64,000 nt of DNA from Candidatus Nanoarchaeia archaeon (GTDB taxonomy: Archaea > Nanobdellota > Nanobdellia > SCGC-AAA011-G17 > JAUYJU01). The stretch covers positions 5,954 to 69,953 of the forward strand of contig JAUYJU010000027.1 of NCBI GenBank assembly GCA_030700155.1. The letters are read 5' to 3'. The translations under genes were made by a program, and so were the position numbers. Under the pieces are notes generated by a model that did not search any database, was not told the origin of the DNA, and worked only from the letters and a program-made list of their open reading frames with translations. How positions within the stretch are numbered: the stretch's first letter is position 1; each line of letters opens with the position of its first letter. Positions 439 to 63,355 of this stretch are shown piece after piece.

Positions 439-741
439 TTAGCCGAATAGGGCACCTAATCCAGCAGCAGCTGCTTCGACAGCTTTATTGTCGTCTTCTT
501 TCTTCTTTTCTTCCTTCTTTTGCTCTCCGCCTGCAGGTGCTCCACCACTAGGTGCAGCAGCAACTACAGCAGCTTCTTTGATTGCAGATTCAATATCTAC
601 ATCACTCAGAGCAGCAACAAGAGCTTTAACTCTTCCGTCATCTGCTTGAGCACCAGCTGCTTCAAGAACCTTTTTAACAGATCCTTCGTCTACTTTCTTT
701 CCTGCTTTGTGTAGCAAAAGTGCTGCGTATATGTATTGCAT
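439..741 (-). CDS. rpl12: 50S ribosomal protein L12 (P1 stalk protein)
   Basis: 100 aa. Has the MQYIYAALLLH N-terminus, an Ala/Gly/Pro hinge and an acidic EEKKKEDD...GLGALFG C-terminal tail typical of the archaeal P1 stalk protein. Confidence 0.9.
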   Translation of the reverse strand: MQYIYAALLLHKAGKKVDEGSVKKVLEAAGAQADDGRVKALVAALSDVDIESAIKEAAVVAAAPSGGAPAGGEQKKEEKKKEDDNKAVEAAAAGLGALFG

Positions 742-762
742 TGCCTTTTGTCCTCCTAAGTT

Positions 763-1962
763 TTAAATTTCCCCTCTGCTTTTTTTATCTTTTAATTGAT
801 TGATTATATCTCCAACACTCTTATTTTGATCAGGTATAACTCTTTTCTTTGTAACTAGATTATTTACACCTGGAGTTTTTGTTAATTTTGAATCTTGGAT
901 TTTTTTCAAAACATCTTGTGCAATCTTAACTTGATCATCCAAACTAGGCTCTGATACTGGAGGTTGAGGTTTTGGTTCAGGTTCAGGTGGACTAGGTTCT
1001 GGTGGTCTTGGCTCAGGTTTAGGTTCTGGCTCTGGCGGTTTTTCTGCAACTATCTTAGCTTCAGTCTTTGGAATATCAGCTTGAGGCTGAGGTTTAGGTT
1101 CTTCTTTAACTTGTGGAGTAGATTTTTCTACTTGAGCATCTTGTTTTGATACTTCTATATTACTTACAACCACATCAGTTTCAAAGTTTACTTTTTTAGC
1201 AACACCTTTAGCAGTTATTTGTGCTTTTTGAACAACAAGTTTCAATATCTCAGGATCTGGGTGTTCAATGAAAACAGCCAAGTTCCTTGCCCAAGTGAAT
1301 GCTTTCTTAATATTATCAACATATTCTTTTTCATCAATTCCAAATACATTTTTATCCAAAACTTCTCCAGATTGATATGTAGCAACTAAGTTCAAACCAA
1401 TTTCCATTGGTTCTACACCAAATTTAGCTAATAAATCTGAAACCTCAGTAGTTATTATTTGTCCAGTTTTAACTAAAATTTTACCTTCCTTTAGATTAAT
1501 CTTTCCTTCTTTTACTTCAGTTTTCAAACCTAATTTACCTAACTCTCCAATAATTGGACCAGGTGCAAAGGGAGTTGGACCAGCGTCAACACCTAAATCA
1601 TTAGGCGCTATCTGTCCTGCTTTTGCTGCAGCACTTGATTTATTTTTACTTATTTTTTTATACAAAGAGAACGGATTATCTTTACTAAAAACCAAAGAAG
1701 GCATTCCATTCAAGTAAGGTAATAATTTCTCAACATGAGGTTTATCTTTCAGCTGCTCTATAGCCTTTATGATAAATCTTCTTTTTGTAATTTTAGTCTT
1801 CATTATATTCTTCAAAGAAGTTCTTATCTTCATGAATTGTAAAGCTGGTAAATTCTGTAGATTAATAACTCCAATAACAGGATACTCATTGAACAGTCTA
1901 ATAATATCCTTTACTTCATCCTTCTTCCACTGTTGTATTATTGGCTCAGGTTTTTTACTCAT
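763..1962 (-). CDS. rplP0: 50S ribosomal protein L10 (acidic P0) with a long Pro/Glu/Lys-rich C-terminal extension
   Basis: The N-terminal 300 aa align by eye with archaeal P0 (RLFNEYPVIGVINLQNLPALQFMKIR...). Gene order is L1-L10-L12. The C-terminus carries PEPEPKPEPRPPEPSPPEPEPKPQPP repeats. Confidence 0.85.
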   Translation of the reverse strand: MSKKPEPIIQQWKKDEVKDIIRLFNEYPVIGVINLQNLPALQFMKIRTSLKNIMKTKITKRRFIIKAIEQLKDKPHVEKLLPYLNGMPSLVFSKDNPFSLYKKISKNKSSAAAKAGQIAPNDLGVDAGPTPFAPGPIIGELGKLGLKTEVKEGKINLKEGKILVKTGQIITTEVSDLLAKFGVEPMEIGLNLVATYQSGEVLDKNVFGIDEKEYVDNIKKAFTWARNLAVFIEHPDPEILKLVVQKAQITAKGVAKKVNFETDVVVSNIEVSKQDAQVEKSTPQVKEEPKPQPQADIPKTEAKIVAEKPPEPEPKPEPRPPEPSPPEPEPKPQPPVSEPSLDDQVKIAQDVLKKIQDSKLTKTPGVNNLVTKKRVIPDQNKSVGDIINQLKDKKSRGEI

Positions 1963-2831: not shown

Positions 2832-3365
2832 CTAAAATACCAAATCTCTACCATATCTAAGCTTACAAATATAAAGGCTTTCAAAGAATATTTTCTTCTC
2901 AGAAAGCTTCTCGTAACCATAATTTTGCTCCTCTAATACCTTAAAAACATCTCCAGAAAGACTGCTGAAAACAATTAAAATAATTCCATTTTCTTTCAAA
3001 TAACTTTTAGCTTCTTTTAAAAAACGTTCAATGATCTCATGACCTTTTTTTCCACCAGTTGTAACAATTCTGCTTTCCTCATCTTCAGCTTCGTCTAATG
3101 GTAAATAAGGTGGATTAAATACAATTAAATCAAATTTCCCTTTAACCTTCTCAAATAAATCTGATTGATAAGCCTTAACTCCTTTTGATTTAACATATTC
3201 AACTGCTTCTAAATTAATATCACAAGCTTCAACATCATCAGTTTTTTCTAAAGCTGCTAAAGCTTGTAATCCAGATCCAGTTCCTACGTCAAGGACTCTT
3301 CCAGTTGCAAATTTTCTTACCTGTTCCTGTAACAAGAAAGAATCTTCTCTTGGTTCATATATCAT
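2832..3365 (-). CDS. SAM-dependent methyltransferase, HemK/Mtq2-like (N5-glutamine MTase family)
   Basis: Has a VLDVGTGSG SAM-binding motif I and the NPPY motif IV. At 177 aa it is a small stand-alone methyltransferase. Confidence 0.6.
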   Translation of the reverse strand: MIYEPREDSFLLQEQVRKFATGRVLDVGTGSGLQALAALEKTDDVEACDINLEAVEYVKSKGVKAYQSDLFEKVKGKFDLIVFNPPYLPLDEAEDEESRIVTTGGKKGHEIIERFLKEAKSYLKENGIILIVFSSLSGDVFKVLEEQNYGYEKLSEKKIFFESLYICKLRYGRDLVF

Positions 3366-3984
3366 GCCTCAACCCTGGAAAATAAGGCTTATAAATGTAG
3401 TGCATTATACTAAAGCTATGAAAGTCATCTTAGAACATATGGAAAAAGAAGTATTCAAATGGTGTCAAATTGAATACAAACATATTTCTAAAATCATTGG
3501 AAAAGACAATTTAATTTTTACTAACATCCAAAAAAAATATAAAAATAAATTAAATAATTTAGGAGAAGTGAACACAAAAAGTGTCAAAGGCTTAAATATT
3601 AAAAGATTATGCGTTCTAGATCCTCGAGCAAAAAAAGTTCTTTCTCCAGAAGACGGTAAACTTTTTGATTATTTTGTTTTTGGAGGAATTCTTGGTTCAG
3701 AAATTATGGGCGGCAGAACTAAAAAAGAACTAAAAATTCATGGAGTAGCAAGAAGGAATCTAGGTAAAGTACAAATGCCAACAGATATAGCTGTATTGGT
3801 TACAAAAAAAATAATAAAAAATAAAATACCTTTTTCAAAACTTAAGTTTAAAGATGAGATTGAAATTCCAATAAAGAGAGGTATATCAACAATACTCCCT
3901 TACAGATATCTTATAGAAAAAGGAAAAGTAATTTTAGCTCCAGGACTTAAAGATTACCTTAGAAAAGAAGACTCATTTGACTAA
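3364..3984 (+). CDS. Hypothetical protein (possibly an RNA-modification enzyme; family not recognised)
   Basis: 206-aa ORF with tight packing against its neighbours. I see no diagnostic motif. It sits next to a pseudouridine synthase gene. Confidence 0.3.
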   Translation: MPQPWKIRLINVVHYTKAMKVILEHMEKEVFKWCQIEYKHISKIIGKDNLIFTNIQKKYKNKLNNLGEVNTKSVKGLNIKRLCVLDPRAKKVLSPEDGKLFDYFVFGGILGSEIMGGRTKKELKIHGVARRNLGKVQMPTDIAVLVTKKIIKNKIPFSKLKFKDEIEIPIKRGISTILPYRYLIEKGKVILAPGLKDYLRKEDSFD

Positions 3985-7908: not shown

Positions 7909-7936
7909 TATATTCTATAAACTATATATTCTATCC

Positions 7937-7958
7937 GTTGCCACCTTGCCAACCGCAC
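7937..7958. repeat. 22-bp motif GTTGCCACCTTGCCAACCGCAC, copy 1 (exact second copy at 60957..60978)
   Basis: Exact 22/22 match between the two loci. Flanking similarity extends the match to about 34 bp (tatatt(t)tcta.c.GTTGCC...GCAC.c). Confidence 0.7.
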
Positions 7959-8006
7959 GCATAGCCTACTTAAGAAAGAACCACCTATCATATCTTAACA
8001 AAGGAG

Positions 8007-8207
8007 GTGTCAGAAATGACCAAACAAAAAAACCCACAAGAACCATTGGAGGAATTCAGTAGACGCATAAGGAATTACGATTCACTCAATTTCCTTAAAG
8101 AAAGATCTATTCTCACTCATATCATGAATGAACTTGTAAAAGTAGATCCACAAACTATAGCTGAAATAACAAGTAAACAGCTTCAAGCTCTGCCAATTAG
8201 GAGGTAA
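8007..8207 (+). CDS. Hypothetical small protein
   Basis: 66-aa ORF preceded by a GGAGG ribosome-binding site. A second 39-aa ORF follows directly at 8210..8329. Confidence 0.25.
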   Translation: MSEMTKQKNPQEPLEEFSRRIRNYDSLNFLKERSILTHIMNELVKVDPQTIAEITSKQLQALPIRR

Positions 8208-8331
8208 AAATGAAAACTAAGGAATATGATATTTACCACGAAAGAGAGCTAATCAATTTGCTTGAAGATGACGAGATATCCTCATCAGAAGCAGCATTCA
8301 TGGAAGGCTACAATAAAGCCTTTTTTTAATT

Positions 8332-25103: not shown

Positions 25104-25343
25104 TTACTTCTTGCCTAATTTAATCTCTATAGTAGAAACTCTTACTTGCTTTCCTTCAGTATTTTGAAATTCCTCAGAATTAATAGCAATGTCTTTAACT
25201 TCAACTTGCCCTTCTAAAAATCTTCTAGTAGCTACTTCAGCTATATCTACTGCCCTAGAAATAAATTTACCTCTAGCTTTAACTGTAACTTCACTAGCAC
25301 CTTGGGTTGTGAATTGCATCACCACACCTGTCACGTAGTTCAA
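25104..25343 (-). CDS. albA: Alba (Sso10b-family DNA/RNA-binding protein)
   Basis: KARGKFISRAVDIAEVATRRF...VSTIEIKLGKK matches the Alba core. The ORF begins at a TTG, and an in-frame stop lies immediately upstream. Confidence 0.6.
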   Translation of the reverse strand: MNYVTGVVMQFTTQGASEVTVKARGKFISRAVDIAEVATRRFLEGQVEVKDIAINSEEFQNTEGKQVRVSTIEIKLGKK

Positions 25344-25364
25344 TCTTCAAGAGCAAGCACGCAA

Positions 25365-26333
25365 CTACGCTCTTTTAAAAGGTTTACTACCGACAAACAC
25401 AGTATGTTCTTCACTAACGCGGGTTGGTTTTTCTGTCATTTTATTGTCCTCCGTCTTAGCTTTAATTGAAGTAACTTGTTCAGTTATCCTCCTCTGCTTT
25501 CTCTTTATTGTAAAACCAATAAGGGCATTATAATTTAAAACGCTGTCTTTCCTGTAGATGTTTAAGTAATAGTATGGTTTTCCCGCTGGAGTTTTAGATT
25601 GAGTTATTGTAGACAAAACAGATAAACTTTCTAATAATTTTTTGACCAATAAAACTAATTCTTTCTTAGTGTTAAAAAAACGTATGCCTCTATCCAACAC
25701 ATGAGCTTCACTATCAAACAACCCCCTCAAAAAAGAGCATTTAATATTCTGCGAAAAATCAATTAATTTATTTATGTCAACTTTTTTTAGAAAAGAACTG
25801 GCCTCTTTAGAATCTATATAAGTCAAATATTGCAACTTTCTACTTTTAATGCCTTCGGAAAGTTTTAGTTTTCTTGTAGTGTATCTTGCTTCAAACTTAC
25901 TCCATTTTTCTAAATTTGCTTTAAATTCTAAAACAAAATCTTCATCAGTTGCACTTAACATTACTCTTCTTTGTTTTGTACTTATATGCCCATCTCCATA
26001 GACTACGCCCAATATATATGCTAATTCTTCACTCATGGTTTTAGCTCTTTCTGGTAGTCGTTTGGTTCTAAGCTCAGCAGAAATTTGCACAGCCTTATGT
26101 TGAGTCAATTTGTTCATGGCACGCATTCTTTCAACATTTTCAATTGAATTAGAAGCCCTGATTCTCTTTTCAGAAAAATAATAAGGTTTCATGCCTCGAT
26201 TTATCCAACCTTCCACTGTACTCCTGTTAGGCAGATTTAAAAGTTTAGAAATTCTCTGACTGCCATATCCCTTATTTTTTAATTCCATGGATTTGGTATA
26301 CTGTTCTAAGGTATACTTAGTTATTTCAGTCAA
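25365..26333 (-). CDS. Free-standing protein with an N-terminal HTH and two LAGLIDADG motifs (homing-endonuclease fold)
   Basis: Two LAGLIDADG-type motifs, LAYILGVVYGDGHIS and FLRGLFDSEAHV, plus an N-terminal HTH-like segment (GYGSQRISKLLNLPNRSTVEGWI). It is not inserted in a host gene. Confidence 0.6.
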   Translation of the reverse strand: MTEITKYTLEQYTKSMELKNKGYGSQRISKLLNLPNRSTVEGWINRGMKPYYFSEKRIRASNSIENVERMRAMNKLTQHKAVQISAELRTKRLPERAKTMSEELAYILGVVYGDGHISTKQRRVMLSATDEDFVLEFKANLEKWSKFEARYTTRKLKLSEGIKSRKLQYLTYIDSKEASSFLKKVDINKLIDFSQNIKCSFLRGLFDSEAHVLDRGIRFFNTKKELVLLVKKLLESLSVLSTITQSKTPAGKPYYYLNIYRKDSVLNYNALIGFTIKRKQRRITEQVTSIKAKTEDNKMTEKPTRVSEEHTVFVGSKPFKRA

Positions 26334-26354: not shown

Positions 26355-26549
26355 TTATTTAGCTTCTTCTTGTTTTACTAACCTTGTGATATATCCAGCA
26401 ATAACATTCTTCATTTTCTTGCTTGGAACATCAGCTAACTCAGCTACAGCAACTTTATCTTGCGCAAAGTTACCAGTAAACTTAGTTTTGTGTATAGTAA
26501 ATAGCTTCTTAGCTGTTCTCTTAATCAGTGTAGTCTTTATTCTTCCCAT
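26355..26549 (-). CDS. rps17e: 30S ribosomal protein S17e
   Basis: MGRIKTTLIKRTAKKL...AGYITRL matches S17e. Confidence 0.85.
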   Translation of the reverse strand: MGRIKTTLIKRTAKKLFTIHKTKFTGNFAQDKVAVAELADVPSKKMKNVIAGYITRLVKQEEAK

Positions 26550-36342: not shown

Positions 36343-36545
36343 GTTGTTCTATCTCGATTTACCCATTTTAAACCCTGACTTTAATATTAATATATTATTA
36401 ATTTATTAACGTTAACAAATGTCCTCTATGTCCAGTATGCCACTTAGGTTACAAGGATATAGGTCAAGCTTTATATAATTTAGGCGACGTGCACGTGCAC
36501 CTAAGCTTAAAAATACAATAAACTAGATTCTTTTCATGTTTTAAA

Positions 36546-37352
36546 ATGTCAAACAACGACACATTTCCAGCCATAGTATTTTGTTTTGTTATTCTGATTA
36601 CCTTTAATGAATTTCTAAATCCAATTTTACAGGATTTTCTTGCTGTGGACTGGAAGCGAATAGGCATTATCTTTGGTGCTGTTGTTGGAATTTTGATTTT
36701 AGCCTTTTTTACAATAAGAAATATTATTTTGAAGAAAAAAGTAAAAGAAGGCTATATTCCTTACAGTAATCCAGAACCAGAAGAGAATGAAGAACGTCTG
36801 ATTGAAGAGGTTGAAGAACCTGAAGAGCGAGTTATTGAGCAACCTGTTCATAGGGTAGTTAATATTCGAGTAGATGAAACTAAAGGCTTCTTTAAGAAAT
36901 CTGAAATAACTGATGATGAAGTTACATACCTAAAGAATAAAGGATATATAGAAAGCACTCATATGAGCATAGTTACTAAATCTATGGAAAGATATTTGCT
37001 AAAACCAGCTTCTAACGAAAGCCCTAGTCACTTTTTCTTAATACAAGACATTTGTAATTATATTAAGAAATTCACAGACAAAGTCTGGACGTATAATACT
37101 GTTAAGCCTGATATTGTTTTCATTGATAAACGTGGAAGAAAGGTTGCTATTGAAGTTGAAACAGGAAAAGTATTGAAATATAAACCAGAAAGATTACCTC
37201 AAAAAGTTAAACACATGACTGAGAATTATGATGACTGGTTTTTTGTGGTTACAGATGGCAATTTGGTAAGAGAATACAAGAATTATGGTAAAACCTATGA
37301 AAAAAGAAGTATAACTAAAATTCTAAGCAATCTTGTAAGTGGCACAAATTGA
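36546..37352 (+). CDS. Membrane-anchored protein with a PD-(D/E)xK nuclease-like C-terminal domain
   Basis: Two N-terminal transmembrane segments. The C-terminus (VKPDIVFIDKRGRKVAIEVETGK) resembles a restriction-endonuclease-fold core (D...E-x-K). Confidence 0.4.
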   Translation: MSNNDTFPAIVFCFVILITFNEFLNPILQDFLAVDWKRIGIIFGAVVGILILAFFTIRNIILKKKVKEGYIPYSNPEPEENEERLIEEVEEPEERVIEQPVHRVVNIRVDETKGFFKKSEITDDEVTYLKNKGYIESTHMSIVTKSMERYLLKPASNESPSHFFLIQDICNYIKKFTDKVWTYNTVKPDIVFIDKRGRKVAIEVETGKVLKYKPERLPQKVKHMTENYDDWFFVVTDGNLVREYKNYGKTYEKRSITKILSNLVSGTN

Positions 37353-37501: not shown

Positions 37502-38581
37502 TTATGTAGTTTTTAATGGTCGGTGTAAGTTAACAATTCTAGCAATAACCTCTTTTCGCAGCCGATATGTATTCGCCCATATAGCGTAACCAAACCAACC
37601 TTGCAGACCTTCTAAAATATTATCTTTAACTAGGACTCCTTCTTTCAAGAGTATTAACTTCTCATTAAAATCTCTTTCGAACCTTCTTTTATTATTTTTT
37701 CTCAACAACCTATAATAATAAAAGTTTTTATAGCCCAAGAATGTTACACCGTTCTTTAAAGGGATTATCTTAGATTTATCTGAATGTAGTTTCAGTTTTA
37801 AACTATTCATGAGATAATAATCTATTTTTTGCTTGTAGCTTTCAAGAACATCTTTCTGTTGGTGCATTATTACAAAATCATCAACATATCTTATATAATA
37901 TCTTGCTCTGATTTCCTGCTTAACAAAGTAATCCAATTCATTAAGATAAATATTAGCAAAGAATTGAGAAGTTAAATTTCCAAGAGGCATCCCTTTGCCA
38001 GCTATCTTTATATCAAAATTGTTTAATATCTGCTTAATTAACCATATAACTCTCTCATCTTTTATTCTTCTCTCTAAAACGTTTAATAAAACCTCATGAT
38101 CTACAGTTTCAAAATAATGTCTTATATCTGCCTTTAAGATATATCCTTTAACTGAATTGTTATCCTTAGCGTTTTTAACCAGCCTGCCGTTATTTGAAAC
38201 TTTTCTTTTGAATTTATCAAATCTTAAAATTGCATTGTGAGTTCCTTTGTTAATTCTGCTCGCATAAGAATCATGAATAAATCTCTTTTCAAATATTGGG
38301 CTAATAATATTAACTAAAGCATGATAGACAACTCGGTCTCTGAATGAAGATGCATGAATTGTTCTTGTTTTTGGGTCTCTGACAATAAACCTCTTTAATT
38401 GCTGCGGTTTATACGTTTGATATTCTAACTCTTGTTTTAATTTATTTAACTCGTTTAATAGATTAGCTTCAAATTCTTTGACATATGGTCTCTTTGATTT
38501 TCTCTTTTTAGCCTTTTTGAAAGCCAATTCTAAATTTTTAAAAGAGTATAGCTCGCCGTATAAGTTATTGTAAGTTTTCAT
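37502..38581 (-). CDS. Reverse transcriptase of a diversity-generating retroelement (DGR)
   Basis: RT motifs 1 to 7 are present, with YVDDFVIM (the YxDD box). The DGR-diagnostic motif MPLGNLTSQFFANIYLNELD (I/LGxxxSQ) replaces the QGxxxSP motif of group II introns. The likely true start is MKTYNN at 38581. The 49 codons the ORF track places upstream are the template repeat read through. Confidence 0.85.
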   Translation of the reverse strand: MKTYNNLYGELYSFKNLELAFKKAKKRKSKRPYVKEFEANLLNELNKLKQELEYQTYKPQQLKRFIVRDPKTRTIHASSFRDRVVYHALVNIISPIFEKRFIHDSYASRINKGTHNAILRFDKFKRKVSNNGRLVKNAKDNNSVKGYILKADIRHYFETVDHEVLLNVLERRIKDERVIWLIKQILNNFDIKIAGKGMPLGNLTSQFFANIYLNELDYFVKQEIRARYYIRYVDDFVIMHQQKDVLESYKQKIDYYLMNSLKLKLHSDKSKIIPLKNGVTFLGYKNFYYYRLLRKNNKRRFERDFNEKLILLKEGVLVKDNILEGLQGWFGYAIWANTYRLRKEVIARIVNLHRPLKTT

Positions 38582-38609
38582 TTTGTGATGTCCTATAACT
38601 TGGGTTATT

Positions 38610-38710
38610 CCGAGCTCCGGATTCTCGTCTTTTTTAGATTTCGAATTCTGCGGATTCCTGTTGCAATTGAGGTTAGCCCTATCGGAATTCGCATTGAACC
38701 TCGCGACAGC
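38610..38710 (-). repeat. DGR template repeat (TR), directly upstream of the RT
   Basis: A segment of about 100 bp is homologous to the 3' ends of the two target genes. Every alignable difference lies at a T on the plus strand, which is an A on the minus (coding) strand. Confidence 0.75.
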
Positions 38711-38956
38711 TTTTAGCAGGTTCATCAAGTTTCACCATAACTTCAGGTTTCACTCCAGCTTCCCCAAGACCATCATTGCTACTAACTGTTGTTATTGTAT
38801 TTTATGGCGTTTAGACTTAAATCGTCCACGCACTATGAACCTGCGTGTAGCCCAAGTCGTCGTTTTTCATTGATTTTCCTTTTGGTTATTAAGGAAAACT
38901 CCATACGACATCTAGGACGAAATAAAAAAGATTGATTAGATTAATAAATTTACTGT

Positions 38957-39748
38957 TTAAATTTTTGCGCGCGCCTGACGTACCCCGAGCTCCGGACCCG
39001 AACTCCGCGGATCCCAGTAGCAATCGAGGAAAGCCCTACCGGAACCCGCAACGAACCCCGCGACGCTTCCATCTCTTGGATACCAATAATATAAGTCACC
39101 TTGCTTAATATCTCTTGGAGGCAAACCTTGGATAGTTGCCCTTTCTAACCAATCATCTAAATTTATTCCTGGAGTTCTATCTTCCATTAAACATTCTTCC
39201 AATGGCTCGGAATATTTCGGTTGCGACTGTCCGTTGACAAACATATGACCATAATCAACAACTAATTCACTTCTTCTCAAAAGACCTTTGGATTGTTTTC
39301 TGAACTTTGCATCAAGCCATTCTGCCCTATAGGGGCTTCTAACTGTTAAAATTTCGTCAACAATCTTAGCCAACTTAGCACGATCTACTCTATTACCGCT
39401 AGCGTCAAAAGGTTTTCCAGTAGTTATTAAATTCAAGAAATCAACATATTGTCTTATTGTAAGCATAAAGTTTCCTTCATTATGCAAAATTTCCTGTGTT
39501 TTATGCCAATTATTATTGTGATGAACTACATTAGCAGAAACTAACAAATCAGGATAAGAATAACTGCCATAGGTTTTTCCTTCTAGAATTATATATTCTT
39601 TTTTATTTGATATGTTTGAAGCAGGGATTATTGCTGGAATTATTTTACTTTCTGGCTGAGTTTCAACTTTGGGAACTTTAGATTCTTCCAAGTACTTCTT
39701 CAATTCTGCTTCTCTGTCCTTTCCGAAAATATTATCTGGTATTTTCAT
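38957..39748 (-). CDS. DGR target protein 2 (lectin-like or FGE-sulfatase-fold C-terminal domain carrying VR2)
   Basis: 263 aa. It shares its N-terminal 24 aa and its C-terminal ...LGVRQARAKI with target 1. The C-terminal region is encoded by VR2. Confidence 0.75.
   Translation of the reverse strand: MKIPDNIFGKDREAELKKYLEESKVPKVETQPESKIIPAIIPASNISNKKEYIILEGKTYGSYSYPDLLVSANVVHHNNNWHKTQEILHNEGNFMLTIRQYVDFLNLITTGKPFDASGNRVDRAKLAKIVDEILTVRSPYRAEWLDAKFRKQSKGLLRRSELVVDYGHMFVNGQSQPKYSEPLEECLMEDRTPGINLDDWLERATIQGLPPRDIKQGDLYYWYPRDGSVAGFVAGSGRAFLDCYWDPRSSGPELGVRQARAKI
38985..39066 (-). repeat. DGR variable repeat 2 (VR2), carrying an in-frame 18-nt deletion relative to the template repeat
   Basis: Matches the template repeat except at template-A positions. 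It is flanked on the 3' side by a GC-rich palindromic element (GGCGCGCGC) that is conserved in VR1 but absent from the template repeat, a candidate initiation-of-mutagenic-homing site. Confidence 0.75.
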
Positions 39749-41469
39749 TGCTTTGTAAACCTCTTGTAGGTATTTGTAGCTGTATTAACCATCAATTTTG
39801 AAAGTTCTTCTCCTGAACTTACGTAAAACACAGGCAGACCCATACCTTCTAAATCTTGGGTAAATCTATTTGAACCGCCAATTTGAATATGTGCAAAATA
39901 GTTTTCTTTAGCTAATTTTTCAAATTCGGACTTAGCTGAACTCCAGTTTTCTATTTCTCCGTCTGAAATAGATAAAACAAAACTCTCTCTGCCTTGCAAA
40001 GCATCAACTAATGTCCTTGCATCCAATTTTGTACCTCCCCAATCTGGAGATAAAGCTAATTTTCTTAATTGATGTATATTTTTAAAATCTGATTCTTCAT
40101 ATCTTGTGCTTGAAGAAAATAAAGCAAGTCCGTGTCCAATATACTGAGCTATTCCCTGCGCTTGTAAAAACTGTTCAATTCCATAAAAACCAAGTAAAGC
40201 ATAGTGATACTTACTATTGTCGCCCCAAGGAATAAAAGTTTGGTCTCCCTGATGCCCATTAATTCCTTCTTTCATAGTTCCTGAATTATCCAAAACAACC
40301 ATCTTAAAATCTGGGAAAGACTTTCTTTGGAATTTTGCTTTTTGAGCTATTGTTAAAGGTGTTCTTTGGTGTCCAAATGTAACTCCTTCATCATTAGCAT
40401 ATAATTTAGATTTTATTTTTCTTACGTCATCAGTTTCAGGATCAAAAGCTCTGAAATTTAATGGTGCTATTGCTAAACTTTGTTCTCTAGTCATTGCTTC
40501 AACTTCCACAGGTATTGATCTTGCTAATCTTTTATATAACAAATCTAGCTGTTCGTGTGATTCAAAATTTGGAGATAAACCATCCCCAGATTTATAACGC
40601 CCATAAGTAATTTCTTCCTTGCCTTCTTTTGCTGAAGCTTTTTCTTCCAATCCATTTCCTTCCTGTTCCTTTTCACCATTTTGATAGGCTGAAAGTCTTT
40701 CTGTTGGAGGTATTTCCAGCAAAGGTGCTAATGCAGCTGCAAATTGTGAAGCCATTTCAGGCCATTCTGATTTATTGAAAAGTTTAACTGTATCTACTTT
40801 ATCTAATGATAATTCCTTTACTACTTTATTTACAGCTTCTTCAACTTTTACAGCTTGTTCAATTTCTTTGGTATTATGTCTTTTTAATAAAGCTTTATCT
40901 GAATTATCTCCCCATAAATGCATATTTAATTTAACAAACGCTTCATAAAAAGGAGTGTAACCTTTTTGCCCTGCTCTTTTACATTGAAAACCTTCGTCGT
41001 CCCAGAATAAAACTTGTCCTGAGAAATTTCCAGTATATTCTTTACATCTTGTATTGTTAATCAAATCTTCAAAAGCATTTGCAACATAACCAGCCTGCCC
41101 TTGTTTATCTTCTGGCAGTGCTTCTTTGACTGCTTCTAAAATTAAATCATGATTATAAACATCATAAGGGCATCCAAAACCTGAATGGAAAGGCAGCTCC
41201 CAATGTCCTAATTCGTGATGCAGAATATCAGTTAATAATTGTTTTTTGCCGTCTTCAATCTTCTTTTTTCTTGCGTAAGCTTTTTGTCTTCTGTCAGTTA
41301 TTGGATTAAATCCTCTATTAATATTTAATTCAATGCTCCAGTTTCTTGGATCAATATGTGCTGAAACGTTTTTATCTGTATCATCATACTCATTTAATTT
41401 CAACGTTCCGCTAACTAGACCTATACTGTTCTTTATCCTATTTAATTCTTGAATTAAAGTCATTTTCAA
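39745..41469 (-). CDS. Protein with an HExxH motif (metallopeptidase-like) and a C-terminal von Willebrand factor A domain
   Basis: HHELGHWELP motif. The vWA domain has a MIDAS motif, VVLDNSGTM. 574 aa. It overlaps both target genes by 4 nt. Confidence 0.6.
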   Translation of the reverse strand: MKMTLIQELNRIKNSIGLVSGTLKLNEYDDTDKNVSAHIDPRNWSIELNINRGFNPITDRRQKAYARKKKIEDGKKQLLTDILHHELGHWELPFHSGFGCPYDVYNHDLILEAVKEALPEDKQGQAGYVANAFEDLINNTRCKEYTGNFSGQVLFWDDEGFQCKRAGQKGYTPFYEAFVKLNMHLWGDNSDKALLKRHNTKEIEQAVKVEEAVNKVVKELSLDKVDTVKLFNKSEWPEMASQFAAALAPLLEIPPTERLSAYQNGEKEQEGNGLEEKASAKEGKEEITYGRYKSGDGLSPNFESHEQLDLLYKRLARSIPVEVEAMTREQSLAIAPLNFRAFDPETDDVRKIKSKLYANDEGVTFGHQRTPLTIAQKAKFQRKSFPDFKMVVLDNSGTMKEGINGHQGDQTFIPWGDNSKYHYALLGFYGIEQFLQAQGIAQYIGHGLALFSSSTRYEESDFKNIHQLRKLALSPDWGGTKLDARTLVDALQGRESFVLSISDGEIENWSSAKSEFEKLAKENYFAHIQIGGSNRFTQDLEGMGLPVFYVSSGEELSKLMVNTATNTYKRFTKQ

Positions 41470-42158
41470 ATTTTTGCGCGCGCCTGACGTACCCCGAGCA
41501 CCGGACCCCCGTCCCTAGATCCCGAATACCGCGGACCCCTGTCGCAATCGAGGCCAGCCCCACCGGAACCCGCATAGAACCCCGCGACAGCTCCATCTCT
41601 TGGATACCAATAATCAAAATCGCTGCCTTTTGTTGTTGGGAAGCCTTGCTTGTTGAAACTTCCTAAATCAACTTTACAATCTTCCATCAAACAAGCTTCT
41701 AAAGGTTCTTTATTTTGAGGTGCTAATTTACCATTAATTATTCTATGATTATAACTAATCTGATCTGCATTTTTTAAAGTTTTGAAAGATGCATCAAGCC
41801 ACTCTGCTCTCCACGGATCTCTTACTTCTGTTATTTCTTTGTATAATCTTTTGAAATCAGCATTTCCATTTTTTAATATTGCTAAGAAGTCAGCAAATTC
41901 TCTCAAATTAAGCATTCTTGCACCTTCTGAATTTAATGATTCATGTGCTTTGTACCAATCTTCATTAAAATGAGTTCTTTGTTTAGATACGTAGAGATTA
42001 TGATTAGGCAGATAAATATAATCTCCTTTATCAAAACCTTCTAGATTTATTTGTGGTTTAGGTTGTTCTTTAACTTCAGGCTGTCTTTTAGATTCTTCCA
42101 AGTACTTCTTTAACTCTGCTTCTCTGTCCTTTCCGAAAATATTATCTGGTATTTTCAT
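41466..42158 (-). CDS. DGR target protein 1 (paralog of target 2; the C-terminus carries VR1)
   Basis: 230 aa with the same N-terminal MKIPDNIFGKDREAELKKYLEESK and the same C-terminal tail as target 2. Confidence 0.75.
   Translation of the reverse strand: MKIPDNIFGKDREAELKKYLEESKRQPEVKEQPKPQINLEGFDKGDYIYLPNHNLYVSKQRTHFNEDWYKAHESLNSEGARMLNLREFADFLAILKNGNADFKRLYKEITEVRDPWRAEWLDASFKTLKNADQISYNHRIINGKLAPQNKEPLEACLMEDCKVDLGSFNKQGFPTTKGSDFDYWYPRDGAVAGFYAGSGGAGLDCDRGPRYSGSRDGGPVLGVRQARAKI
41494..41592 (-). repeat. DGR variable repeat 1 (VR1)
   Basis: Roughly 100 bp aligned to the template repeat with substitutions only at template-A positions, plus a 3-nt length change inside an A-homopolymer tract. 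Confidence 0.75.
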
Positions 42159-54895: not shown

Positions 54896-54968
54896 TAGTC
54901 CCAGGCGGATTCGAACCGCCGTTACAAGGTCCAGAACCTCGTGTGCTTGGCCTCTACACTATGGGACT
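54896..54968 (-). tRNA. tRNA-Gln (anticodon CUG)
   Basis: 73-nt manual fold: acceptor AGTCCCA/TGGGACT, D-stem GTGT/GCAC, anticodon stem CGAGG/CCTTG with loop TTCTGGA, TΨC arm GGCGG/TTCGAAT/CCGCC. Confidence 0.8.
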
Positions 54969-55018: not shown

Positions 55019-55127
55019 TAGCCCCGCCCGGATTTGAACCGGGGTCACAGGCCCCAAAAACCCGTATCCTTGGCCGTTATCTCTGGTCATAAGGTTACCC
55101 TCAAAAACCAGTCTAGACGACGGGGCT
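55019..55127 (-). tRNA. tRNA gene of about 109 nt with an intervening sequence; isotype unresolved
   Basis: Perfect 7-bp acceptor stem (AGCCCCG/CGGGGCT), a perfect TΨC arm (CCCGG/TTCAAAT/CCGGG) and discriminator A. No canonical D or anticodon arm can be drawn, which suggests an intron of about 35 nt or more at a non-canonical position, or two introns. Confidence 0.5.
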
Positions 55128-59889: not shown

Positions 59890-60840
59890 TTATCGTGAAA
59901 ACCAGTCAGATATTAGTAACCTATACCTGGTTTCTTCCCTATACTTAGTTACTTCTCTTTGTTTTTGGACAAGCCCATCTTGTTTAACTTGAACACATTT
60001 TGTTTTTCCGACTTCACAAGTCAGATCAACAAAATAATCTACAGCAGGTCTAGTATTTCCATCAAAATATTCCCACTCAAATTTAATCATATTCGTTCCT
60101 ATTCCATCAATCTTTGATCTTACAAAATTTCTTTTATTTTCATAACCTCTATTATCACATAAATAATTATAAATTGCAAATCCTGAAAAAGTTTCTGGAA
60201 CAGGATTATAAGATTCTCCAATTCCTCTCCAATCAAAAGCATTGGCATCACTAGTAACAGTCTGTGTAAATTGATCAGCATATCCTTCAAAACTTCCACT
60301 AGCTCCATGACAATACTGTCCACTACTTACCCAATTATCAGTTTTCCATGTTCCGGTTATCTTACAATTATTAACTTTAGTGGGGAAAACTTTCTCAACA
60401 GAACTTCCAAAACCTTGATATTTCAAATAATTAGCTTGTGCTCTAAAGGTTATCCTTTCATTAACTAAAGATTCTGAATCACATACTTCATCCATAATTG
60501 GAACTATCACATCATAAGTTTCTATAGAAGTATAAGGAACGCTAACTGTATATGGAACTTTAGTTGTAAATCCATAAATTGTAAAAGCCCCTAGTAAAAC
60601 TACAGCAGTTAAAATTGCAATAGTTATCACAAGACCAACAGGACCTAATTGAGCTAATTTATGAAATTCTTTTCCACAAAATCTGCAAAATTTGGCAAGG
60701 GGATCTATTATTGCCTTACATTCAGGACAATTTTTTTCTAATCTTTTTTCAAGAGCTGCAAGTTCAGTTCCACAATGTTTACAGAAGTTAGATAAAGATT
60801 CAACTGTCTTATCACAGGTTGGACAACTCTTTTTGGCCAT
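59890..60840 (-). CDS. Membrane protein with an N-terminal cytoplasmic double zinc ribbon and an extracellular domain
   Basis: Two C-x2-C...C-x2-C units (CPTC...CKHCG, CPEC...CRFCG), then a transmembrane helix and about 230 aa of likely extracellular sequence. Confidence 0.4.
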   Translation of the reverse strand: MAKKSCPTCDKTVESLSNFCKHCGTELAALEKRLEKNCPECKAIIDPLAKFCRFCGKEFHKLAQLGPVGLVITIAILTAVVLLGAFTIYGFTTKVPYTVSVPYTSIETYDVIVPIMDEVCDSESLVNERITFRAQANYLKYQGFGSSVEKVFPTKVNNCKITGTWKTDNWVSSGQYCHGASGSFEGYADQFTQTVTSDANAFDWRGIGESYNPVPETFSGFAIYNYLCDNRGYENKRNFVRSKIDGIGTNMIKFEWEYFDGNTRPAVDYFVDLTCEVGKTKCVQVKQDGLVQKQREVTKYREETRYRLLISDWFSR

Positions 60841-60956
60841 ATATGGTATAAAATATCTAATGTTTATAAACCTATTGGCAATGAAATTAAAATCTGAAAC
60901 TCTAGAAATATTCCGGAAATCTTTCGAAATTTCCTTCTAATGTATATTTTCTAACT

Positions 60957-60978
60957 GTTGCCACCTTGCCAACCGCAC
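60957..60978. repeat. 22-bp motif GTTGCCACCTTGCCAACCGCAC, copy 2
   Basis: Exact match to 7937..7958, with a similar upstream TATATTTTCTA context. It lies about 40 bp upstream of the second LAGLIDADG protein gene. Confidence 0.7.
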
Positions 60979-61015
60979 ACAAAAACGATATATAAATAAA
61001 AGATGTCTCTACTTA

Positions 61016-62299
61016 GTGAAAGAGCTAATCAGAGTTAAAATAAATGAGGGGCAACAGAGGAAAATTTTTCAAATATTCCTCAAAAAATTTAATAAAAACT
61101 TTTCAAAGGCTAGCAATTACTTAAACACAACTTCCTCTAAATTAAGTAAATATAAAATGGCAGTAATTAAATATTTACCAGAAGAAATAATAGACAAAAC
61201 TACAAACTATTTAAAAATAGATAAACCAAAGATTATTGAAAGAAAAAGTTTAACAAATTTGAGACGAGAATATTTGAATAAAGCGCATAAAGTACTAGAA
61301 AATAAATATGGGAAAAACTGGGCTCGTGAACTTACCATAAGAAGAGATTATAAAGGAATACGACTGGATGATTTTCCAGACTATCTTTTTGTTTATCTGC
61401 AAGAAGATTATAGAAAAAGGTTATTTAAAGTGGCGTATAACGTAGCTGGTAACTTAAACAAATTAGCAACAACCCTGCGGGTGAGCCCATCAAGATTATC
61501 ATGCTGGTACGAAGGAAAACAAAAAGACTATACAAAAAAAGTAATTGCGACGCAATTTACACCTCTATCAAAATTGAAATTAATTTCAGAATTGCTCGTA
61601 AAGGATAACAATCACGAATTCTCAATGTTAAATATAGAAAATAATGTTATAGCCTATAGAATGCGAGCAGGAAACACAATAAAAAATCCAAAATTTCCAA
61701 TCCAAGAATCACCTGAAATGATAAGAATCCTATTTCATCTTCTAGGGGATGGTTATAGTGGTAATAAAAAGAATAATGCAAACTATAAGAATACCTGTCC
61801 ATTGCTCTTAGAGGGGTTCAAAAAAGATCTTAAAATATTTGGAGAAGTTCCAATTTATGAACAACAAGATTCTATAAAGTTTCCAAGATTATTCGCTGAA
61901 TTAATAGAAAATTTTTACAATGTAAACACAATGACTTTTGAGAGCAAAATCTCAAATGAGATACTAAAATTACCAAAAAAACTGTTGTATCAAGGTATAA
62001 AAGCATTCGCAGACGATGAAGGTACAATATATCAGAGCTCAATTAGACTATGCTCGGCAAATTATAACCTACTGAACGGAATCTCTAAAATAATCGATCT
62101 CATAAAACTAAAAAGAGGAGAGATTAAAAAACAACATAATGAGAGGGCTACATATGGAGTTACGTATTATCTCGACATAAAAGACATAGAAGCCTATCAT
62201 AAACACGTAGGATTTTCTCACCCGGTAAAAAAGAAAAAACTAGAGTTATTTGTCAAAAAGAAAAAATCGAAACTAAGAAGGAAAGAATTAAAGTCCTAA
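61016..62299 (+). CDS. Free-standing HTH + LAGLIDADG-fold protein, paralog of the one at 25365..26333
   Basis: Two LAGLIDADG-type motifs (ILFHLLGDGYSGN and IKAFADDEGTI) and an N-terminal HTH-like segment with the same S-x-x-S-x-x-L-N pattern as the paralog. Confidence 0.55.
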   Translation: MKELIRVKINEGQQRKIFQIFLKKFNKNFSKASNYLNTTSSKLSKYKMAVIKYLPEEIIDKTTNYLKIDKPKIIERKSLTNLRREYLNKAHKVLENKYGKNWARELTIRRDYKGIRLDDFPDYLFVYLQEDYRKRLFKVAYNVAGNLNKLATTLRVSPSRLSCWYEGKQKDYTKKVIATQFTPLSKLKLISELLVKDNNHEFSMLNIENNVIAYRMRAGNTIKNPKFPIQESPEMIRILFHLLGDGYSGNKKNNANYKNTCPLLLEGFKKDLKIFGEVPIYEQQDSIKFPRLFAELIENFYNVNTMTFESKISNEILKLPKKLLYQGIKAFADDEGTIYQSSIRLCSANYNLLNGISKIIDLIKLKRGEIKKQHNERATYGVTYYLDIKDIEAYHKHVGFSHPVKKKKLELFVKKKKSKLRRKELKS

Positions 62300-63355
62300 A
62301 CTTTTAATAAGGTCTTCTTTGCTGAACTTTTTGAGGTCATTCAAAGATTGCCCAACCCCCAAATATAATATTGGTTTATTTGTTATGTAAGAAACAGATA
62401 TTGCAGCTCCGCCTTTTTCATCAACATCGGCCTTACTTAAGATTATTCCATCAATACCAATAGTTTCGTCAAATAGCTTAGCCTGCTCTACACAATCATT
62501 TCCAGTAATAGATTCTCCAATGAAAATTTTCAAATCTGGTTTTGAAACTCTAACAATTTTTTTCATTTCATCCATCAAATTTTTATTGCTATGCATTCTT
62601 CCAGCTGTATCAATAAGAACAACATCGATATCCTTAGCTTCAGCATGTTTAATGGCATCAAAAGCAACAGCAGCTGGATCACTTCCATAATCTTGTTTGA
62701 TAACTTTAACTCCTAACCTTTCAGCATGTACTTCTAATTGATGTATGGCTGCAGCCCTAAAAGTATCAGAAGCTGCAAGGACTACTCTCAAACCTTGTTC
62801 TTGCAACATGCGAACAAATTTGGCTATCGTAGTAGTTTTACCTGCTCCATTAATTCCAAAAAAACAGATTACATAAGGTTTTTTGTTTTTTATCCTATCT
62901 AAAACATCAAAAGGTTGAACAAATGAATTTTCAAGCGTGATTCTTAAAGTATCTTGCACAACTTTCATTGTCTCTCCCCTTTTAATTGGATTATTAACTA
63001 AACTTTTTTTAAGGTTTTCTTTTATTTTTTCAATAATTTCAACAGCTACATTATTTTCAAGCAAGGCTAATTCTAACTCCCAGAATAAATCATCAAATTT
63101 ATCTTCAGAAATCTTCGTTGTAGTTATTTTCTCTTTTAATTTTCCGAAAAACCCTTTCTTTTCTTCCTTCGGTTCTTCTTTGACTTCTAATTTCGGTTTT
63201 TCCTTTTTTTCTTTCTTGATTTCAGGTTTATTTTCCTCTTTTTTAGGTTTTTCTTCTACTTGAACCTTCTCAATTACTGGCTCTGCTTCTGCCTCTACTT
63301 TTTTTGAGAATTTATCCAGAGCGCCTTTTAATTTTTCTTTTAAAAATTTAAACAT
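62288..63355 (-). CDS. ftsY: Signal recognition particle receptor FtsY
   Basis: NG domain with a FFGINGAGKTTT Walker A motif and a Lys/Glu-rich N-terminal region. Confidence 0.9.
   Translation of the reverse strand: MFKFLKEKLKGALDKFSKKVEAEAEPVIEKVQVEEKPKKEENKPEIKKEKKEKPKLEVKEEPKEEKKGFFGKLKEKITTTKISEDKFDDLFWELELALLENNVAVEIIEKIKENLKKSLVNNPIKRGETMKVVQDTLRITLENSFVQPFDVLDRIKNKKPYVICFFGINGAGKTTTIAKFVRMLQEQGLRVVLAASDTFRAAAIHQLEVHAERLGVKVIKQDYGSDPAAVAFDAIKHAEAKDIDVVLIDTAGRMHSNKNLMDEMKKIVRVSKPDLKIFIGESITGNDCVEQAKLFDETIGIDGIILSKADVDEKGGAAISVSYITNKPILYLGVGQSLNDLKKFSKEDLIKSLGL

Follow-up and report, generated by a model that had tools for sequence, protein, structure and literature searches.

We describe here two LAGLIDADG genes and their surroundings in a 64,000-nucleotide (nt) stretch of DNA from a Candidatus Nanoarchaeia archaeon (contig JAUYJU010000027.1; hereafter the window). 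The window has a G+C content of about 31% and by Pfam search encodes orc1/cdc6, Alba, S17e, and FtsY, and the host is a DPANN archaeon of the Nanoarchaeia/Woesearchaeota type. An earlier sequence-only reading had pointed to open reading frames (ORFs) of 322 and 427 residues, both of which are present where it placed them (Table 1), and described them as paralogous, free-standing proteins, each with a helix-turn-helix (HTH) and two LAGLIDADG motifs, that could be domesticated regulators binding a 22-bp motif (the 22-mer) found beside the second. We find instead that both are optional, probably mobile genes for free-standing double-LAGLIDADG homing endonucleases, and that the first, ORF1, adjoins an alba gene interrupted by a predicted bulge-helix-bulge (BHB) intron, a pairing that recurs in every locus of the ORF1 family that we recovered.

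ORF1 starts 21 nt past the end of the S17e gene and matches Pfam LAGLIDADG_3 in two stretches (expectation value E of 4.9e-20), and NCBI names an identical protein as a LAGLIDADG family homing endonuclease. Its AlphaFold model has a predicted local distance difference test (pLDDT) score of 85, rising above 90 in the core, and the best PDB match of this model is I-DmoI, with a template modelling (TM) score of 0.70. Monomeric enzymes of this class hold their two motifs in a pseudo-symmetric alpha-beta-beta-alpha-beta-beta-alpha core. The N-terminal region is an extra HTH domain of about 100 residues, predicted to form a three-helix bundle. The acidic residues that end the two motifs, D114 of GDG and E209 of DSE, are invariant among the 20 homologs aligned, as judged by sequence position rather than by active-site superposition. 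No Hint domain was found in the Pfam search, so ORF1 does not lie within an intein, and it is not intron-encoded, as the gene precedes alba exon 1, and the introns of alba, 26–34 nt long, contain no ORF. The statement that neither ORF is inserted in a host gene is literally correct, but the ORF1 reading frame stays open across alba exon 1 and is closed by a TAG within the alba intron. Only four of the 22 distinct DNA loci of the family have this fusion, so it is incidental; we discarded it as a conserved feature, the 12 of 19 protein hits that had suggested one reflecting query bias.

The alba intron holds in-frame TAG and TGA stops, and the annotated, shortened Alba (..NYVTGVVMQF..) begins after the second of them. 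In the fold of this region a 4-bp central helix (CUUU/GAAG) lies between the bulges UA|A and AU|U, with a 7-bp inner helix (AAGAGCG/UGCUCUU) and an outer exon helix that, from the fold and by eye, is of a relaxed form with about 3–5 bp and mismatches. Canonical tRNA introns of this kind are cut after the second base of each 3-nt bulge. Applied to the window alba this rule joins ..UUU A|UG AAC.. to give ..KPFMNYVTGVV.. within the protein ..GSKPFMNYVTGVV.., and a spliced RNA lacking exactly 25375..25343 is predicted to read CCTTTTATGAACTAC. With the intron removed, the Pfam Alba match grows from profile positions 12–65 to positions 1–65 and from 51.5 to 64.6 bits, and shuffled versions of the intron pass the same BHB test in 0.9% of trials. 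Because the pre-mRNA folds into a BHB, we infer that the intron would be removed in vivo by the tRNA-splicing endonuclease and ligase, restoring an intact Alba. Indirect support for splicing comes from a tRNA-Gln(UUG) in the window (55020..55127, minus strand) with a non-canonical D-loop BHB intron of about 36 nt (GUCU AG|A CUGGUU..GACCAG AGAU AA|C), and from a tRNA-splicing endonuclease gene (tRNA_int_endo_N plus tRNA_int_endo, 194 residues) at 735..1319 on the plus strand of a related locus, L007, about 2 kb upstream of its endonuclease-alba locus. The tRNA-Gln(UUG), which was missed by default ARAGORN and by Rfam, adjoins a tRNA-Gln(CUG) at 54896..54968.

Table 1. Features of the two LAGLIDADG loci and of the repeat containing the 22-mer, in window coordinates
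Feature	Position	Strand	Basis or comment
Promoter-module copy 1, AT box plus 22-mer (7937..7958)	7918..7961	+	Not followed by a TATA box or a LAGLIDADG gene; orc1/cdc6 on one side, two small ORFs on the other
alba exon 2	25104..25342	-	Pfam Alba
alba BHB intron, 33 nt (predicted)	25343..25375	-	Minimum-free-energy fold; BHB cleavage rule
alba exon 1	25376..25439	-	GGAGG Shine-Dalgarno, N8, ATG at 25439, MTEKPTRVSEEHTVFVGSKPF, first base of Met codon; read from sequence
ORF1, free-standing double-LAGLIDADG endonuclease gene (probable) with N-terminal HTH	25365..26333	-	322 residues
Ribosomal protein S17e gene, upstream flank of ORF1 insertion	26355..26549	-	Pfam; directly 5' of alba in loci without the endonuclease gene
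Zinc-ribbon protein gene, one flank of ORF2 insertion	59890..60840	-	Pfam DZR/Zn_ribbon_3
ORF2 insertion segment, about 1.47 kb, including promoter module	60876..62348	.	blastn; boundaries approximate
Promoter-module copy 2, AT box (TGTATATTTTCTAACT) plus 22-mer GC box (60957..60978)	60938..60981	+	Repeat comparison; GCCAACC core 14 nt ahead of the TATA box
Putative ORF2 TATA box (TATATAAATA)	60989..60998	+	17–19 nt before GTG start; assigned from the spacing of other window genes and tRNAs
ORF2, free-standing gene, two HTH modules plus double-LAGLIDADG core	61016..62299	+	427 residues
ftsY, other flank of ORF2 insertion	62288..63355	-	Pfam SRP54

The association between the endonuclease gene and the interrupted alba was examined in two sets of loci, the 80 top-scoring alba loci from species-representative genomes, and 22 distinct ORF1-family loci (carriers) obtained through protein look-ups and a metagenome scan and including the window and one species-representative carrier. 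In 79 of the 80 loci there is no endonuclease gene, and S17e is directly upstream of an uninterrupted alba; the one locus with the gene has an alba with a 30-nt intron. The order in all 22 ORF1-family loci is S17e, endonuclease gene, and alba, and alba is always interrupted right after the codons for KPF, such that introns are present in 22 of 22 carrier loci and in 0 of 79 non-carrier loci. Each carrier alba has one or two BHB introns, with two in four of the loci (L004, L097, L104, and L114). A script applying the BHB rule restored ..G..KPFMNYVTG(V/I)(V/I)MQ as its best solution in 20 loci, with inner helices of 4–10 bp, and the restored ..KPFMNYVTG.. is identical to that of 74 intron-less alleles. 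The inner-helix sequences are unrelated between loci but complementarity is always kept (covariation), and with boundaries defined by the protein all 16 single-intron loci pass, compared to 0.3–1.3% of shuffled introns per locus. L105 and L108 fit a BHB by eye (one mismatch; inner helix of 3–4 bp with a mismatch), in L104 the central helix of the second intron is weak, and L001 requires a 4-nt 3' bulge.

There are three intron insertion points within 5 nt across the codons Phe-Met-Asn, located after TTT, after TTTA, and after TTTATGAA. Some of the junctions split a codon, either as A|TG, where introns at the first site divide the ATG such that it can be restored only by RNA joining, or as AA|T. 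In all four double-intron loci the tandem introns are a few nt apart, and at L004 the second intron acquires its central helix (UAUG) through removal of the first, which suggests that splicing is ordered. We also note that the alba of L107 is flanked by two endonuclease genes, with a double-LAGLIDADG gene of a third family (2955..3899, plus strand; 314 residues; Pfam E of 2e-9) directly downstream.

It is extremely unlikely that the interruption is left unspliced, with alba being a pseudogene, encoding an N-terminally truncated protein, or being read by ribosome hopping as in T4 gene 60. Gene callers do annotate only a 71–79-residue Alba in carrier relatives, and T4 gene 60 offers a parallel in that its gap, too, is associated with a mobile endonuclease gene (PMC2988022; bioRxiv 10.1101/2022.08.31.505936). 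However, exon 1 is intact in all 22 carrier loci, with a Shine-Dalgarno, an ATG, and ..VF(V/I)GxKPF, the BHB geometry falls at the exact boundaries needed, and the intron lengths are often not multiples of three. Ribosome hopping is further excluded by the codon-splitting junctions, which it cannot rejoin.

The distribution of the ORF1 element suggests mobility. When loci are compared by S17e plus Alba identity, carriers often have non-carriers as their nearest relatives (e.g. L004 and L025 at 88%, and L109 and L021 at 84%), mean identity within carriers equals the mean between carriers and non-carriers, and the empty site in L025 reads TAA-TAACGGAGGACC-ATG. With closest relatives mixed and empty sites available for comparison, the element is evidently patchy, and the gene and its intron or introns are always gained or lost together. 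All of the alba introns fall inside a conserved stretch (AAR CCN TTY ATG AAY TAY GTN ACN) in which codon positions one and two are 97–100% conserved, and all but one invariant, among 74 loci lacking the gene; homing endonucleases favour highly conserved target sites. We propose that the ORF1 enzyme would recognise the conserved intron-less alba sequence AARCCNTTYATGAAYTAYGTNAC, as the co-occurrence and the clustering of introns at three points within 5 nt of a conserved 22-bp stretch suggest, and that the intron, by splitting this presumed target, would protect the carrier genome. A naive alba allele, once cut, would be repaired from the carrier allele, and the repair would copy the intron plus the endonuclease gene about 70 nt upstream together, by co-conversion. 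The ORF1-alba pairing would then be an archaeal analogue of phage collaborative homing.

A different interpretation is that the introns are unrelated passengers in one recombination block and that the enzyme has its target outside alba, perhaps in S17e or in the spacer between the two genes. Free-standing endonucleases often cut a flanking gene at some distance (PMC6083498, PMC2988022), and with a gene-intron gap of only about 70–100 nt, co-conversion alone could keep the two together. Separation would sometimes be expected, however, and the counts in carriers and non-carriers contain no instance of it. Moreover, the position, number, and sequence of the introns turn over among carriers within the same 5 nt, which points to continuing selection for interrupting that site, and we therefore regard the passenger explanation as unlikely.

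Within the homing scheme it is possible, although on balance doubtful, that the LAGLIDADG enzyme itself seeds intron gain, with repeated cutting and repair of alba producing short insertions, of which the survivors would fold as a BHB and be spliced. LAGLIDADG homing endonucleases make a site-specific double-strand cut with 4-nt 3' overhangs, and the insertion points TTTA| and TTTATGAA| are 4 nt apart, as are the staggered nicks expected of such a cut (4-nt 3' overhang TGAA). Equating this 4-nt spacing with the LAGLIDADG overhang is speculation.

The second gene, ORF2, has no Pfam match at E ≤ 0.01 (0.013 when relaxed), although its full-length homologs (46–64% identity) carry HTH_3 and LAGLIDADG_3. 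The ORF2 AlphaFold model (pLDDT 91) matches intein endonucleases and I-DmoI, and the motif-end acids, D245 of GDG and E335 of DDE, are invariant in 29 sequences, again by sequence position and with no active-site superposition. The double-LAGLIDADG description of the two proteins is therefore sound, through Pfam for ORF1 and through homologs, model, and motifs for ORF2. The term paralogous applies at the level of a common superfamily, as an ORF2-family profile finds the ORF1 core (E of 1.2e-10), but the two are not close paralogs (BLASTP E=0.42). Similarly, both N-terminal regions are predicted to contain three-helix HTH bundles, of which ORF2 has two, but they have no significant sequence similarity. 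The NCBI record starts ORF2 at Met48 (61157, 380 residues), and alignment with 24 full-length homologs favours the GTG at 61016.

The 3' end of ORF2 overlaps the 3' end of ftsY by 12 nt, a convergent arrangement also seen in L009–L012, in which the upstream neighbours vary. In L133 and L134, which have the closest FtsY relatives (69% and 65%), ftsY is separated from the zinc-ribbon gene by 23 nt with no ORF2 between them, and alignment to the window is lost at about 62348 and picked up again at about 60875. ORF2 falls in a homolog set of 70 clusters, compared to at least 7863 for FtsY. The empty ftsY/zinc-ribbon sites together with the retained acids indicate that ORF2, too, is optional and probably a free-standing endonuclease gene.

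The 22-mer is present in the window as two exact copies, as had been reported, one beside orc1/cdc6 and the other upstream of ORF2; there were no matches in 100 shuffles and there is no third copy in the window at three or fewer mismatches. The repeat around it extends to 44 nt with 86% identity, including the TATATT-type flank. Copy 1 begins 28 nt past the orc1/cdc6 stop, and copy 2 ends 37 nt before ORF2, is inside the ORF2 insertion, and is followed 10 nt later by the TATA box. In promoters of the window a TATA box of the TTTATAAA type lies about 22 nt ahead of a leaderless start, and the ORF2 mRNA is probably leaderless. The exact 22-mer has no match in the species-representative genome collection or in viral contigs, no variants with seven or fewer mismatches were found upstream of four ORF2 homologs, and Rfam searches around both copies at gathering thresholds and relaxed E-values gave nothing relevant.

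A related motif is present in other genomes. The S17e-to-gene spacers of many ORF1-family genomes contain an AT box (ATATTCTATAA..TATATATTCTA), a GC-rich box (the GC box), a TATA box, and, about 21 nt later, the start codon. The GC-box core, G(A/C)CAAC(C/T), lies 17–21 nt before the TATA box, and is present in ORF1-family promoters (L001, L004, L097, L100, L104, and L108), in ORF2-family promoters (window copy 2, as GCCAACC, and L011), and, with a TATA box, in the promoter of the third-family gene downstream of alba in L107. Every GC-rich core match with a readable downstream gene precedes a LAGLIDADG gene in the 627 kb examined, a set enriched for such loci by construction. A further GC-box plus TATA promoter (GACAACCACCTGCGTGAGG-TATATAAA) is present at about position 372 on the minus strand of L013, a locus without an ORF1-family gene, where the downstream gene (MKSWHIW..) extends beyond the fetched DNA.

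From its sequence context, the 22-mer is the GC box of a putative promoter cassette that travels with LAGLIDADG genes, with copy 2 predicted to drive ORF2. This accords with the alternative offered by the sequence-only reading, in which the motif would be the mark of a small mobile or regulatory element, in that the 22-mer lies in an insertion of about 1.47 kb and three LAGLIDADG families include genes preceded by a related GC box at a locked position. The GC box could be a transcription-factor site, and might conceivably be an operator for the endonuclease's own HTH domain. The autorepression of I-TevI, in which the endonuclease binds an operator in its own promoter, provides a precedent for such self-binding (PMC2988022). 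However, whereas the I-TevI operator resembles its homing site, the GC box resembles neither the alba target nor the ftsY junction, and we rejected it as an I-TevI-like homing-site mimic.

The proposal that both proteins are domesticated, non-cutting LAGLIDADG-fold regulators with the 22-mer as operator can now be considered. The domesticated bacterial regulator WhiA (DUF199) likewise combines a LAGLIDADG core with an HTH, and is among the weaker structural matches of both models; in addition, both proteins have N-terminal HTH modules, the 22-mer lies in the ORF2 promoter with similar boxes before other LAGLIDADG genes, and the synteny of each family is kept at 45–64% identity. However, the catalytic residues have been lost from WhiA, which is conserved lineage-wide, whereas the catalytic Asp and Glu are invariant in both families here, the best structural matches are active endonucleases, and the distribution is patchy. 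Both genes are optional, with precise empty sites in close relatives, and so are not lineage-wide conserved regulators like WhiA. An operator shared by the two genes is also not seen, as the window ORF1 lacks a box of its own, as do three of the four ORF2-homolog promoters. We conclude that the domesticated-regulator proposal is very unlikely to be correct.

It is also distinctly unlikely that the 22-mer is something other than a protein-binding promoter element, such as the first part of a small RNA or leader transcribed from the AT box, or the product of a recent neutral duplication. A TATA-like AT box 6–7 nt upstream of both 22-mers could place a transcription start near the 22-mer 3' end, and there are just two copies, both exact. 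Against these readings, there is no Rfam match and the sequences downstream of the two copies are unrelated. In addition, other genomes at 45–60% protein divergence have a related core at a fixed distance from the TATA box, which is not expected of neutral duplication. Inspection by eye also led us to drop a split-tRNA half, a C/D box small RNA, a CRISPR repeat, an origin recognition box, and an att site, as there are no matching boxes, dyad symmetry, or AT-rich unwinding region nearby, and housekeeping genes lie between the copies.

With the 22-mer read as a promoter GC box, copy 1 is, on its sequence, a lone or relic form of the putative cassette beside orc1, and it may now serve the small ORFs at 8007..8329. 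A six-frame profile search detected no decayed LAGLIDADG gene beside it. The two small ORFs (8007..8207 and 8210..8329, plus strand) encode 66 and 39 residues, the first has a strong Shine-Dalgarno, and Pfam returned nothing significant for either. CCACCU stretches in the 5' untranslated region (UTR) are potential pairing partners of that Shine-Dalgarno.

Taking these observations together, we favour with moderate confidence a reading in which the window contains optional LAGLIDADG cassettes, with ORF1 coupled to alba BHB introns through a scheme resembling collaborative homing, and with the 22-mer as a promoter GC box. Several considerations weigh against it. The ORF1 target is deduced only from co-occurrence and intron clustering, and splicing from sequence and fold; the BHB outer helix in the window is weak, at 3 bp plus mismatches, and L104, L105, and L108 fit a BHB only under relaxed rules. 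The choice of 80 top-scoring alba loci is biased against split genes, such that intron-only alleles could go unseen, and the carrier loci are phylogenetically related, such that the 22 are not fully independent. As to the promoter element, about half of the ORF1-family promoters lack the GC box, as do the ORF2-homolog and window ORF1 promoters noted above, and copy 1 of the 22-mer adjoins no LAGLIDADG gene.

The closest parallel is with collaborative homing in cyanophage S-PM2, which involves the free-standing F-CphI and an endonuclease-less psbA group I intron (Zeng, Bonocora and Shub 2009, as recounted in PMC6083498 and PMC2988022). The two systems share a free-standing endonuclease gene adjoining a conserved gene with an ORF-less intron at a highly conserved coding site, the co-occurrence of gene and intron, and the proposal that the intron blocks self-cleavage. 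They differ in that alba belongs to a cellular archaeon and psbA here to a phage, in the type of enzyme, which is LAGLIDADG for alba and Endo VII-like for psbA, and in that alba has several intron positions and double introns. Furthermore, the psbA intron is a self-splicing group I ribozyme, whereas the alba intron is a BHB of 26–34 nt with predicted removal by host enzymes.

Comparisons with other systems are also informative. The archaeal cbf5 pre-mRNA has a BHB intron of 16–44 nt at one site in Crenarchaeota (Watanabe 2002; Yokobori 2009, PMC2738675) that is similarly short, located in a protein-coding gene, without room for a nuclease ORF, and lineage-specific in its presence or absence, but it has no associated endonuclease gene, whereas the alba introns occur in DPANN hosts at three sites within 5 nt and with strict LAGLIDADG linkage. 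ORF1 shares its monomeric double-LAGLIDADG fold and BHB-intron association with I-DmoI and other archaeal rRNA-intron enzymes, but I-DmoI-type ORFs are inside introns, whereas ORF1 is outside the intron, upstream of exon 1, and has the additional N-terminal HTH. The 50-nt bypass element of T4 mobA/gene 60 is also a short untranslated insertion in an essential gene that travels with a free-standing endonuclease gene (PMC2988022; bioRxiv 10.1101/2022.08.31.505936), although the T4 gap is skipped by the ribosome and the alba intron is predicted to be spliced. Archaeal mRNA BHB introns are reported for cbf5 and for the Haloferax HVO_1309 5' UTR (PMC7714728, PMC2738675); in the literature searched, BHB mRNA introns were limited to these two, and we found no paper linking alba, a BHB intron, and LAGLIDADG.

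Two other features of the window deserve mention. A likely diversity-generating retroelement at 37502..42158 (minus strand) includes a reverse transcriptase (RVT_1, 37502..38728), an RT-16 RNA (Rfam, 38708..38916), and paralogous ORFs at 38957..39748 and 41466..42158 with GC-rich 3' ends of 113–128 nt that are 84–86% alike; a template repeat was not located in the window. A GC-rich element with a tandem GTGCAC repeat (TAGGCGACGTGCACGTGCACCTA) is situated at 36481..36503, within the promoter region of a gene whose start is at 36546.

A second case of a coding-region BHB intron would widen the picture of these introns in Archaea, as the gene concerned encodes Alba, an abundant chromatin protein, and the predicted introns recur in at least 22 DPANN lineages, at shifting positions and sometimes in pairs. 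Their strict linkage with a free-standing LAGLIDADG gene points to a way in which mini-introns of this kind could spread and persist, namely through immunity against the neighbouring endonuclease. Collaborative homing, described for phage group I introns, would then hold also for cellular Archaea and for protein-spliced introns. Enzyme-seeded intron gain, if true, would explain in concrete terms how protein-coding introns arise and turn over in Archaea, and a chromatin gene would then harbour a self-immunising gene-drive unit. At a practical level, gene callers shorten Alba in these genomes, and in the window exon 1 is fused to the endonuclease ORF. The conserved GC-box cassette may in turn offer a handle on the expression of selfish endonuclease genes in organisms that are not yet cultured.

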